DNA of 9,881 nt from a virus (taxonomy: Duplodnaviria; Heunggongvirae; Uroviricota; Caudoviricetes). A program made the translations under genes and the position numbers. The notes below the pieces were generated by a model, which was given only the letters and a program-made list of their open reading frames with translations, was not told where the DNA came from and searched no databases. The stretch lies in IMG/VR virus record IMGVR_UViG_2675903425_000022; one strand, given 5' to 3'. This document shows, one piece after another, positions 3,335-7,383 of this stretch (within the stretch, counting starts at the first letter, position 1; every line of letters starts with the position of its first letter).

Positions 3335-3825
3335 TTAATGCACAGCCAGAGTGTTTCCTGCCGGGCCACCACGATTCATCTGATCGAACAGAACGATCGC
3401 TGATGCAACGAAATCATCAATATCTTTCACCAGCCGTTCCTTCGTCTCTACCAACTCCCGAAAATAAGCGGAACTGTGGCTGCGCATTCGGGCCACCAGC
3501 GGAGGCGGCATCGCTTTTTCGATCGCTGGTAACAACGCCTGAATTTTTTTAACCGCATCAGGAGTGTCTTTCTCCACCCAGCGGAAAATTTTCTGAGTAT
3601 TGCGAGCCATGGCTTCCGGATGGCTGTCGTCATACAGTTCCGGGAACGTCATTCCCAGCTCGAAATACGCTTNNNNNNNNNNNNNNNNNNNNNNNNNNNN
3701 NNNNNNNNNNNNNNNNNNNNNNGCTCGAAATACGCTTTGGTAATTTTCGCAGCCGGTACTTTTTCGCCGTCCGGATGCGCCCAGGCATTCATCGCCATGC
3801 GGATGTGTTCATGCTTGATTTTCAT
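3335..3825 (-). CDS. ydaT: YdaT-like (CII-analogous) regulatory protein; ORF interrupted by a 50-N gap
   Basis: ATG at 3825 (top CAT 3823-3825) with GGAG 7 nt upstream. N-terminus is MKIKHEHIRMAMNAWAHPDGEKVPAAKITKAYFE up to the gap, and the translation resumes after it as LGMTFPELYDDSHPEAM...GNTLAVH. Removing the gap and one copy of the duplicated 15-mer gives a continuous 426-nt ORF (141 aa), the size recalled for YdaT. Position after the Cro-like gene fits. Confidence 0.7.
3673..3722. other. Run of 50 N (scaffold gap), flanked by identical 15-mers
   Basis: gctcgaaatacgctt occurs at 3658-3672 and again at 3723-3737, immediately on either side of the N run. Confidence 0.95.
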
Positions 3826-4081
3826 GAATCAACTCCGGCGCATTTGATGTGTTAACCTTACATCCAACAGGTAAACCGTCGGTTGGGTTAGGATAAATAT
3901 CTGGGCGGATTTCATGCGGGGTAACTTCCCACTTCATTAGTTGGCATAACGGAATTACCTGCTTTGGGGGAACGCCAAAGCTAAACCATTGCCAAACAGT
4001 CTGTTGAGCGACCCCCATATAACGACCTATTTCAGCCTGAGTGTATTTCTGCCTAATTTTTTCGCGAGTGCTATCTAGCAT
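3809..4081 (-). CDS. ydaS: Cro-like HTH regulator (YdaS-like), first gene of the minus-strand early operon
   Basis: 90-aa ORF with a classic HTH (TQAEIGRYMGVAQQTVWQW). ATG at 4081 with GGAGG 6 nt upstream. It is divergent from the plus-strand repressor-like gene across a 108-bp region holding a perfect palindrome. The 3' end overlaps the YdaT-like start by 17 nt. Confidence 0.75.
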   Translation of the reverse strand: MLDSTREKIRQKYTQAEIGRYMGVAQQTVWQWFSFGVPPKQVIPLCQLMKWEVTPHEIRPDIYPNPTDGLPVGCKVNTSNAPELIHENQA

Positions 4082-4114: not shown

Positions 4115-4153
4115 ACAATAAAAAACTGTATGCAATCAACAGTTTTTTATTGT
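4115..4153. promoter_or_regulatory. Putative operator: perfect 15-bp inverted repeat ACAATAAAAAACTGT / ACAGTTTTTTATTGT with 9-bp spacer, in the divergent promoter region
   Basis: Read directly. Additional ACAG/CTGT half-site-like motifs follow at 4162-4177. Location between the Cro-like and repressor-like genes. Confidence 0.6.
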
Positions 4154-4189: not shown

Positions 4190-4591
4190 ATGATGAGCGC
4201 CCTAGAAGTATCTATGTACAGAATCAGCAAGCTTCTTCAGGAAACTGGATGGAGCCAGGCTGAGCTTGCCCGTAGAATTGGTGTGACACAACAAACTGTT
4301 CAACAATGGGTCAGCGGTAAGGCTACACCTAAAGCCTCAAGTTTGGATAAACTGGTTGAGGTTTCAGGGCATCCATTGCATTGGTTTTTATTGCCTCCTG
4401 AAGAGTGTGAGCAAATTTTCACCCCTGACACGATGAAAATTGGTCCTCGCCAACGCGAACTGCTCCAAGCTTTTAGTGCGTTTCCTGAGGAAGACCAAGA
4501 AAAAATGCTTCAAGAAATCAAAGACAAGAAAAAATCAATGGAAGAAACCATTGCTAGGTGGCTGGCGGCACAAAAAAGCCGCCGGGCGTGA
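4190..4591 (+). CDS. paaR2: HTH (XRE-family) transcriptional regulator, PaaR2-like; occupies the CI-repressor position
   Basis: 133-aa ORF with HTH (SQAELARRIGVTQQTVQQWVSGK) and no LexA-type peptidase domain. It is first in a three-gene operon with a 63-aa antitoxin and a ParE toxin, matching the paaR2-paaA2-parE2 arrangement recalled from E. coli O157 prophage CP-933P. There is no Shine-Dalgarno before ATG 4190, so it may be leaderless or start at ATG 4214. Confidence 0.75.
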   Translation: MMSALEVSMYRISKLLQETGWSQAELARRIGVTQQTVQQWVSGKATPKASSLDKLVEVSGHPLHWFLLPPEECEQIFTPDTMKIGPRQRELLQAFSAFPEEDQEKMLQEIKDKKKSMEETIARWLAAQKSRRA

Positions 4592-4618: not shown

Positions 4619-4810
4619 ATGGGTACAGCCCTTTCTCCGATAGTTTCAGAATTCGAAACTACCGAACAAGAAAACAGTTACAACGAATGGTTGCGCACTA
4701 AAGTAACGTCAAGCCTTGCAGACACTCGCCCCGCAATTCCACATGACGAGGTAATGGCTGAAATGGAAAATCTTATTGCTCAAATTGCTGTAACTAACAA
4801 GAGCGAGTAA
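4619..4810 (+). CDS. paaA2: Small antitoxin of the ParE module (PaaA2-like)
   Basis: 63-aa acidic ORF (MGTALSPIVSEFETTEQENSYNEWLRTKV...). GAGGA 8 nt upstream of the ATG; its stop overlaps the toxin start (TAATG). Size and position match PaaA2 as recalled. Confidence 0.7.
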   Translation: MGTALSPIVSEFETTEQENSYNEWLRTKVTSSLADTRPAIPHDEVMAEMENLIAQIAVTNKSE

Positions 4811-5097
4811 TGTTACCCATTTTATGGCTACCGTCTGCTCGCGATGATTTGCGCCAGATCATAACTTACATCGCCAAGGAGAACCCACCGGCAGCACGTA
4901 GACTAAAAATACGCATTGAAACATCGGTATTACCTCTATCTGAGCATCCGTACTTATATCCACCAAGCGAACGGGTTTCTGGATTGAGAGAGATCGTGAC
5001 CCACCCTAACTACATAATCCTGTACAGAGTAGCTGCTTCAAGCATTGAGATTGTAAGCGTGACACATTCTCGGCGACAATTTCCCTTCTCTATCTGA
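4810..5097 (+). CDS. parE2: ParE/RelE-family toxin (ParE2-like)
   Basis: 95-aa ORF translationally coupled to the antitoxin. Sequence ...RQIITYIAKENPPAARRLKIRIETSVLPLSEHPYLYPPSERVSGLREIVTHPNYIILYRV... is typical of ParE/RelE-fold toxins. Confidence 0.8.
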   Translation: MLPILWLPSARDDLRQIITYIAKENPPAARRLKIRIETSVLPLSEHPYLYPPSERVSGLREIVTHPNYIILYRVAASSIEIVSVTHSRRQFPFSI

Positions 5098-6433: not shown

Positions 6434-6768
6434 TTTATCCTCCATTAAGGGCTGAATTAAAAATGGAGACCAACACGCTGCTACGTGTGGTCGTGCGCCG
6501 GACACAGATAAGAATCCGGCACTGACAGTTTACTGAAAGGATATATCCCTGAAAAGTCAGGGCATAACACGAAAGTGCACGGCGAAGTCCTTCTCCCTTA
6601 GAGCCGTCGTTAAATTTAATTCGACCGTGCGCTTCCGGTTGTGGCAATCCGCGAAATGGCGCGGCGGTAAGTATGGCGGGGTTATTCTTTCCCCGTTGAG
6701 GACACCGGGTTGTCAGGTTGACCATACGCTTAAGTGACAACCCCGCTGCAACGCCCTCTGTTATCAAT

Positions 6769-6821
6769 ATTCTGGTGACATTTGGCGGTATCAGTTTTAC
6801 TCCGTAACTGCTCTGCCGCCC
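6769..6821 (+). ncRNA. dicF: DicF small RNA homolog (53 nt)
   Basis: ATTCTGGTGACATTTGGCGGTATCAGTTTTACTCCGTAACTGCTCTGCCGCCC differs at 3 of 53 positions from the K-12 DicF sequence as I recall it (TTTCTGGTGACGTTTGGCGGTATCAGTTTTACTCCGTGACTGCTCTGCCGCCC). It is followed by TTTTTT and located just upstream of dicB, as in Qin. Confidence 0.8.
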
Positions 6822-6833
6822 TTTTTTAAAAGT

Positions 6834-6988
6834 GAATTTTGTGATGCGGTGAATGCGGCTCAGCGCACGCGGAACAGTTAAATCGGTAAAGCGGTCATTT
6901 GCTGAGTAACGAGAATGCTCTGTATCCGGCGTTAATTGTTAACTGGTTAACGTCACCTGGAGGCACCAGGCACCGCATCACAAAATTC
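6834..6988 (+). promoter_or_regulatory. Long-range perfect 18-bp inverted repeat (extendable to about 21 bp with one G-U) enclosing 119 nt; candidate RNase III processing duplex between dicF and dicB
   Basis: GAATTTTGTGATGCGGTG (6834-6851) is the exact reverse complement of CACCGCATCACAAAATTC (6971-6988). The 3' arm ends 6 nt upstream of the dicB Shine-Dalgarno (GAGGA 6995-6999). Confidence 0.5.
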
Positions 6989-7006
6989 ATTGTTGAGGAC
7001 GCGATA

Positions 7007-7195
7007 ATGGAAAAGTTATCATGTAATGCCAGCACGTCTGAACTTCGTTTCGAAATTGGCGTTATCACTGGAGACAAAACATTTATTGAAGACGCCATTA
7101 AGCAGAGAAAACTCGAGCAGGACCTGTTAAATGAAGTATGCATTCCTTCAATGCTGGCTCGTCTGGACCTGCTGCAAAAAGGATATAAACAATGA
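7007..7195 (+). CDS. dicB: DicB-like cell-division inhibitor (62 aa)
   Basis: MEKLSCNASTSELRFEIGVITGDKTFIEDAIKQRKLEQDLLNEVCIPSMLARLDLLQKGYKQ aligns along its length with K-12 DicB as recalled (...FEIGVTISNPVFTEDAINKRKQERELLNKICIVSMLARLRL...). GAGGA 7 nt upstream of the ATG; directly downstream of dicF. Confidence 0.85.
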   Translation: MEKLSCNASTSELRFEIGVITGDKTFIEDAIKQRKLEQDLLNEVCIPSMLARLDLLQKGYKQ

Positions 7196-7383
7196 ATACA
7201 ACATTTGCACTCGTTCTGACAGTTTATCTTGTTTCCGGCGAATCTCTTGAGCTGGTGACTGGCTTATACGGTTCAATGAAAGAATGCATGGCTGCAGCAG
7301 CAGAACAAAAAATTCCCGGTAACTGTTATCCGGTAGATAAAACTACTCACACTAATAATAACGAAATACCGGCAGGACTTTAA
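7192..7383 (+). CDS. YdfD-like small protein (63 aa) with hydrophobic N-terminal segment
   Basis: ATG overlaps the dicB stop (ATGA at 7192-7195). Translation MNTTFALVLTVYLVSGESLELVTGLYGSMKECMAAAAEQKIPGNCYPVDKTTHTNNNEIPAGL. Position matches ydfD after dicB in Qin (recalled). Confidence 0.6.
   Translation: MNTTFALVLTVYLVSGESLELVTGLYGSMKECMAAAAEQKIPGNCYPVDKTTHTNNNEIPAGL

Follow-up and report, generated by a model that had tools for sequence, protein, structure and literature searches.

DicF, a small RNA, and DicB, a cell-division inhibitor, come from one prophage transcript, and the amounts of the two depend on termination and on processing between them. What lies between the genes is the question raised by the viral DNA analysed here (the window, 9,881 nucleotides at its full length). 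A preliminary description had pointed to a long inverted repeat in this interval and proposed that it folds into an RNase III substrate. Is the repeat an RNA structure, is it cut, and what does it enclose?

A dicBF operon in an O157:H7 prophage

Positions 6600–7250 of the window are 100% identical to Escherichia coli O157:H7 strain TR01, and related sequence is present in 4,719 of 5,426 complete E. coli genomes; the window is an O157:H7 prophage copy of the dicBF operon. DicF was identified with its Rfam covariance model (76.9 bits, against a gathering score of 48), and dicB as an open reading frame (ORF) annotated as dicB in the identical TR01 record. A DicF pattern scan of genome contigs returned 8 loci only, and a DicB protein-anchored scan of genome contigs gave no match. 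The features of the interval are as follows.

6770–6821, + strand: DicF small RNA (Rfam RF00039, full-length match, 76.9 bits)
6822, + strand: 3′ end of the 53-nt form of DicF, the first U of the T-run, ending at the terminator
6822–6827, + strand: T-run of the DicF Rho-independent terminator, from sequence
6828–6851, + strand: 5′ arm of the long closing helix, AAAAGTGAATTTTGTGATGCGGTG (repeat search and covariation)
6852–6970, + strand: enclosed multi-branched domain, 119 nt (match to Rfam RF02076 and RNAalifold consensus)
6971–6994, + strand: 3′ arm of the long closing helix, CACCGCATCACAAAATTCATTGTT (repeat search and covariation)
6995–6999, + strand: dicB Shine-Dalgarno sequence, GAGGA, predicted to be sequestered at the helix base in uncut RNA
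7007–7195, + strand: dicB, ATG at 7007, cell-division inhibitor of 62 amino acids

Several other features lie elsewhere in the window. A relB/relE-parE type II toxin–antitoxin pair (4619–5097) sits between the DicA-like repressor gene and the ydfA-like gene, the first gene of the dicBF operon in the window; K-12 Qin is without this pair at the corresponding position. A near-perfect AT-rich palindrome (4115–4150, ACAATAAAAAACTGT...ACAGTTTTTTATTGT) in the immunity region, flanked by its two divergent regulator genes (3809–4081 on the − strand and 4190–4591 on the + strand) may be an operator or a bidirectional terminator. Masked sequence (50 N) occupies 3673–3722, within a YdaT-family gene region. 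A second long-range inverted repeat (7138–7153 with 7274–7289; 16 nt, 88% complementary, 120 nt apart) lies in coding sequence and spans the overlapping dicB stop and DUF1482/ydfD start (7192–7195); among 20 variants its pairing is kept at most positions, and several of the changes are wobbles.

A long helix between dicF and dicB

The arms of the repeat, each 24 nt long, are 92% complementary, the positions outside Watson–Crick pairing being a wobble (G6832·U6990) and a mismatch (A6830·G6992). The perfect 18-bp repeat described previously (6834–6851 with 6971–6988) is present, and counting its first A–U extension brings the Watson–Crick core to 19 bp (6833–6851 with 6971–6989); the repeat search also confirmed the spacing of the arms, given before as a 119-nt loop. 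No 18-bp inverted repeat within 300 nt occurred in any of 100 mononucleotide shuffles of the window, and the mean count of 14-mer inverted repeats in mononucleotide shuffles was 0.02. The minimum free energy fold of 6760–7020 includes the helix (−98 kcal/mol; z = −6.3 relative to 200 dinucleotide shuffles), and the long duplex alone has −35.7 kcal/mol.

As the preliminary description had it, the helix begins right after the DicF T-run, which ends at 6827. Its placement before the dicB ribosome-binding site also stands, but not the claim that it ends 6 nt short of that site: the fold pairs 6823–6829 with 6993–6999, so that the U-run of the terminator is predicted to prolong the helix, up to 29 bp, and the base of the helix takes in the dicB Shine-Dalgarno sequence. 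The inverted repeat between dicF and dicB is a real, evolutionarily conserved RNA helix. Two other roles for the element were considered and rejected: an independent promoter, since no sigma-70-like site was seen upstream of it on the + strand, and modulation of the DicF terminator by the helix, since transcription reaches the 3′ arm only about 150 nt beyond the terminator.

Selection maintains the helix as RNA

In 62 distinct close variants pairing holds in 98.8% of cells, and each disruptive change is a singleton. The frequent changes are wobbles, from G–C to G·U in 20 variants and from C–G to U·G in 12, and these are the two wobbles by which K-12 departs from the window. The close set covaries weakly, 3 pairs being changed on both sides (equalled in 8 of 500 shuffles), and for that reason diverged copies were gathered by scanning metagenomes with the first internal hairpin. 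In these metagenomic copies arms of differing sequence still pair, for example AUCAGGAUUUGCAAUGCGGUG with CACCGCAUCGCAAAGCCUGAU. An alignment of 32 representatives, close and diverged, has both-side changes at 12 of 23 helix pairs (equalled in 4 of 500 shuffles) and in 58 cells (equalled in none of 500). Its covariation score is 0.282, compared with 0.177 ± 0.010 in shuffles, of which 0 of 500 reached the observed value, and with 0.055–0.116 in controls with the partners slid. RNAalifold independently recovered the long helix, with 18 of 44 consensus pairs compensated.

A repeat of this form could also belong to the DNA, either as the terminal inverted repeats of a MITE-like element or as a recombination or cruciform site at a prophage module boundary. 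The element is indeed about 170 bp long with 24-bp terminal inverted repeats, and it occurs in several genomic contexts beside different flanking modules. However, flanking direct repeats are absent, all copies face the same way relative to transcription, and relatives of the element keep its architecture with a closing helix of only 6–13 bp, as expected of an RNA domain. The arms covary while their sequence changes, and the tolerated single changes are mostly G·U wobbles, which pair on + strand RNA only; in DNA, or in RNA of the opposite strand, they would turn into A·C mismatches. Together, the strand-specific wobbles and the covariation indicate selection as RNA; on these grounds we rejected a MITE or other DNA-level repeat, which we judge to be very improbable. 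The long helix is kept by selection at the RNA level.

Probable RNase III processing at the dicF–dicB boundary

RNase III accommodates about 22 bp and cuts both strands to leave a 2-nt 3′ overhang, and in vivo a G–C pair usually lies between the two cuts (PMC6212723). With a core of 19 bp and a helix of 24–29 bp, the structure has the substrate size ascribed to it earlier: it provides double-stranded RNA of about two helical turns (~20–22 bp) and, as would be asked of an RNase III site, is a helix kept by selection (covariation; RNAalifold).

The connection between RNase III and DicF 3′-end formation, named in the preliminary description, is documented for K-12, where papers citing Faubladier et al. 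state that RNase III makes the 3′ end of a 72-nt DicF species (PMC5069750, PMC9438474). In the MG1655 annotation dicF occupies 1649382–1649434 and the first base of dicB is 1649609. A 72-nt RNA beginning at the annotated dicF start (1649382) would end at 1649453, a position that may be off by a nucleotide or two because it is counted from secondary citations; it is the G before the break in ...UUUUGUG/AUG..., within the K-12 5′ arm and some 8 bp down from its upper end. By homology the corresponding end in the window is at about 6843/6844. The reported cut is in the 5′ arm only; by the 2-nt overhang rule its partner in the 3′ arm would fall at about 6980/6981, which would place the pairs G6843–C6979 and U6842–A6980, that is one G–C pair, between the cuts.

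Gordon et al. (2017, PMC5371410) set the RNA-seq coverage of an rnc deletion mutant against that of wild type, and their Table S1 lists an rnc-dependent site at 1649470, ‘intergenic dicF-dicB’, flagged as known, with 0/0 reads in wild type and 26 in the mutant (unstranded). This position is 9 nt inside the enclosed loop. The RNase III site considered here is largely known already from the K-12 orthologue, for which, going by later papers, it was reported in 1990. By analogy, we infer that the same cleavage would take place in the O157:H7 copy.

The K-12 dicF–dicB locus is orthologous and has the same helix (arms GTGAATTTTGTGATGTGGTG and CACTGCATCACAAAATTCAT) in the same place, with the DicF terminator on one side and the dicB ribosome-binding site on the other. 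The copies differ in detail: U·G and G·U wobbles of K-12 are G–C/C–G pairs in the O157:H7 copy (6847/6975 and 6848/6974), whose helix base also carries an additional T and an additional A, and its hypervariable centre is different from that of K-12 and 9 nt longer.

Double-stranded stems cut by host RNase III include the R1.1-type sites of the T7 early region, the N-leader and sib sites of lambda and the rRNA processing stems, and intercistronic RNase III cuts in phage operon transcripts separate functional units and alter how the message downstream is translated or how stable it is. At T7 sites a single strand is cut in a short local hairpin with internal loops; the dicF–dicB stem differs in enclosing a structured domain of 119 nt. 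The 16S and 23S processing stems are, as in the dicF–dicB element, long-range stems that bracket structured RNA, and neither the phage RNase III signals nor the rRNA stems are known to have a sequence relationship to the dicF–dicB stem.

Upstream of DicF the window has a second predicted stem, of about 6573–6587 with 6620–6634 (GUGCACGGCGAAG / UUCGACCGUGCGC; region 6573–6636). Its position is the one expected for the published RNase III cut upstream of DicF (~6633), which makes the 5′ end of a 190-nt DicF species; the study of dicBF processing by Ragunathan (2023), supplement included, shows only the RNase III site upstream of DicF. A homologous motif in Rac (GUUAAAUUUAA...GUGCGCCUCCGGUUG) is found at another rnc-dependent site of Gordon et al. 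(2017), 1418510, just upstream of the small RNA KilS.

Proposed mechanism and dicB translation

We consider it likely that the helix formed on read-through is an RNase III substrate that separates DicF from dicB-ydfD and excises a domain related to the small RNA STnc100. Points that weigh against this are that the 2023 study shows an upstream site only, that the signal of Gordon et al. comes from 26 unstranded reads, and that the rnc-dependent signal listed for Rac is not in the stem. Read-through past the DicF terminator would produce a helix of 24–29 bp (6823/6828–6851 with 6971–6994/6999) closing the structured 119-nt domain, and RNase III would cut the helix near 6843/6844, some 8 bp from its upper end, with a partner cut near 6980/6981 if the overhang rule is followed. 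Cleavage would part DicF, 3′-extended by about 19–21 nt, from the dicB-ydfD message and would also excise the enclosed domain, and the new 5′-monophosphate end would also alter mRNA stability. In the reading that we prefer, the uncut helix would hide the dicB ribosome-binding site and cleavage would free it. Partition-function folding gives the dicB Shine-Dalgarno sequence a probability of being unpaired of 0.02–0.18 in uncut RNA and 0.78–0.99 in RNA starting at 6981, and the lower duplex left after cleavage folds with −13 kcal/mol only. From these models, translation of dicB is predicted to be coupled to cleavage. We found no published experimental support for a coupling of cleavage to dicB translation, and the helix of kilR-type and other long-stem copies leaves the Shine-Dalgarno sequence just beyond its base, so that hiding of the ribosome-binding site is not conserved.

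The same folding would suit a helix whose chief task is to lock the translation of a toxic gene, independently of RNase III, cleavage being incidental. By occluding or abutting the ribosome-binding site of dicB, kilR or similar genes, such a lock would keep basal expression of the division inhibitor low. The predicted Shine-Dalgarno accessibility of at most 0.18 in intact RNA agrees with this, as do the toxicity of DicB and KilR when expressed, both being FtsZ-directed inhibitors, and the fact that every long-stem copy ends within ~10–40 nt of where a small kil-position ORF begins. The location of the Shine-Dalgarno sequence outside the helix in the kilR and other types speaks against it, however, and a 12-bp helix would suffice for occlusion, whereas the observed lengths cluster at 21–30 bp, the size for RNase III; moreover, cleavage at this place is documented in K-12, as cited in later papers. 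A lock of this kind is a possibility that we regard as doubtful, and RNase III cleavage remains the preferred function of the helix.

The enclosed domain and its relation to STnc100

The domain closed by the helix is organized as follows.

6855–6870, + strand: hairpin (consensus structure)
6871–6873 with 6925–6927, + strand: junction helix (consensus structure)
6874–6924, + strand: hypervariable insert (variant comparison)
6928–6954, + strand: hairpin with invariant loop TTGTTAACTGG (consensus structure)
6956–6970, + strand: hairpin CCUGGAGGCACCAGG (consensus structure)

The centre (6874–6924) has many insertions and deletions and unrelated sequences among copies, and the variant in the window, 9 nt longer than that of K-12, is a rarer one; the hairpins and loops that flank it are nearly invariant (for example UUGUUAACUGG and GGAGGCACC).

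In a permissive Rfam scan, 6835–6984 matched STnc100 (RF02076) over model positions 21–154 of 206, with 33.6 bits and an E value of 1e-5 in a 501-nt search. The score is below the gathering threshold of 47 bits, and the match is absent from a scan at that threshold; dicB/kil-type copies at other loci also score below it. The closing helix and the internal hairpins of the family, including CCGGGAGGCACCCGG, are present, the first internal hairpin being imperfectly matched. STnc100 also has its own 3′ Rho-independent terminator (model positions ~165–206), and here the match stops at 154: the dicB ribosome-binding site follows directly after the element, where true STnc100 copies carry GCCCCTCTCCGGAGGGGC. 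With a sub-threshold score and no terminator of its own, the domain is related to STnc100 and lacks two of its defining features.

The likeness to STnc100 and its relative PasD lies in the closing helix (GGUGAAU...CACC), the multi-branched architecture, a near-identical hairpin (CACCNGGAGGCACCNGGCACC) and a prophage location. The outer helix of STnc100 is the top of the long stem here, and the hairpin CACCUGGAGGCACCAGG is nearly identical to the family consensus. The differences are in the length of the closing helix, 6–13 bp in STnc100/PasD and 21–30 bp in the dicF–dicB type, and in setting, since STnc100 and PasD are stand-alone small RNAs near tRNA genes, whereas here the element is an operon leader of a protein gene. 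A survey of 107 distinct elements with the core motif found helices of 21–29 bp only in the class leading into a protein gene; adding metagenomic loci gave long helices up to 30 bp and some intermediates of 14–20 bp. Across the wider family the top 5–8 bp of the closing helix covary, positions 5–8 beyond all 500 shuffles, and positions beyond ~9 pair in the long-stem class only. We conclude that the enclosed domain is a diverged relative of STnc100, its closing helix lengthened here to RNase III size.

Copies of STnc100 with full scores are found in other phage contigs, often in tandem beside tRNA genes and each with its own terminator. Tandem sets of 2–5 full-scoring copies beside phage tRNA genes were seen in L183, L188, L205, L223, L232, L242 and L247. 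A short-stem relative lies in the ban operon of the P1-like phages P7 (72453–72568; L174) and D6, downstream of tRNA-Asn and tRNA-Thr genes and upstream of terB.

STnc100 and PasD are expressed prophage small RNAs, PasD being Hfq-associated, and we found no published link of either to DicF or RNase III. Their expression raises the possibility that the helix serves to excise the domain as a stable STnc100-like RNA of about 137 nt, a third product of dicBF. The domain is under structural selection (18 of 44 pairs compensated, loops invariant), and a long-range stem bracketing structured RNA resembles the rRNA processing stems. Against a stable product, the domain has no terminator of its own, unlike true STnc100 copies; no published RNA of ~137 nt from the locus was found; and coverage of the K-12 loop is lower in wild type (0/0) than in the rnc mutant (26 reads; PMC5371410), which suggests that the excised piece is degraded and does not accumulate. 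We therefore think it unlikely that excision of a stable RNA is the purpose of the helix.

Long-stem leaders of kil-position genes

The element directly follows DicF in 146 of the 148 DicF copies with enough downstream sequence, and its occurrence extends beyond DicF. The same long-stem element precedes kilR, and in the Rac prophage of MG1655 it lies between the recently named small RNA KilS (b4833) and kilR. Long-stem copies end within ~10–40 nt of a small-ORF start at the kil position, the ORFs being dicB, kilR, a 40-aa ORF or a small membrane peptide. In some variants the 40-aa ORF or the small membrane peptide is followed by a YdfD-like gene, and other variants lead into isrK-C4-antirepressor modules; variants leading into these modules, the 40-aa ORF or the membrane peptide are not all preceded by a terminator.

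The KilS–kilR leader of Rac in K-12 shares with the dicF–dicB interval a DicF-like small RNA ending in a T-run, the long-stem domain and a gene for an FtsZ inhibitor. It differs in the body of the small RNA, in two single-nucleotide bulges and in a Shine-Dalgarno sequence just outside the helix; the T-run of kilR-type copies forms Watson–Crick pairs with AAAAA. In Rac, an rnc-dependent signal is listed only upstream of KilS, and the stem itself has no reported RNase III end.

KilS (L282 1906–2003, equal to MG1655 1418405–1418502 on the minus strand, with kilR downstream at 1418229) has the same terminator scaffold as DicF (GGCGGCAUCAG...CUGAUGUCCGCCC-UUUUU; GGCGG...CCGCCC-UUUUU). Judged by sequence, KilS looks like a paralogue of DicF with a different body in an equivalent cassette; the paper naming KilS does not mention DicF. 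Further small-RNA-like bodies occupy the DicF position upstream of long-stem elements (L030, ~1230–1318; L279, L218 and L258). Their 5′ parts and loops differ and the GGCGG...CCGCCC-UUUUU scaffold is the same (for example ...UUUUGGCGGGUAUCCGUUUUUUGUUUUCCCUUGUGAUACCCGCCC), which suggests a possible family of interchangeable DicF-like small RNAs with different seeds. Four metagenomic loci (L286, L293, L307 and L309) have a domain with a 12-bp stem immediately upstream of a KilS/DicF-like small RNA, an order reversed relative to the window, with the 3′ arm ...CACCACAAC and then UGCUGUGUGUAGUCCUGGCGGUACCAG.

As a tentative extension, these contexts could together represent a conserved prophage cassette in which a long-stem, STnc100-type leader of kil-position genes is processed by RNase III. 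The leader would belong to the kil-position genes of lambdoid early-left operons, which are small and for the most part toxic, and would often lie directly behind an interchangeable DicF-like small RNA (DicF, KilS or other seed variants). RNase III would release the small RNA and gate or limit expression of the division inhibitor, and it may also free the enclosed domain as a third RNA.

Significance

The additions made here to what is known of this locus are modest extensions: covariation support for the exact helix, the relation to STnc100, and the long-stem leader before kilR and other kil-position genes. We found no published description of an STnc100-related enclosed domain with a lengthened closing helix, recurring before kilR and other small genes. 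The basic picture, which dates from 1990, is unchanged by them.

As prophage products, DicF and DicB halt division of the host cell and rewire metabolism, and in enterohaemorrhagic E. coli they raise virulence gene expression. Placing the published RNase III end on a helix supported by covariation gives exact positions for mutation. For the poorly understood STnc100/PasD family this is a first concrete connection with RNase III. That the long-stem leader recurs before kilR and other small genes suggests that prophage division inhibitors share one control element.
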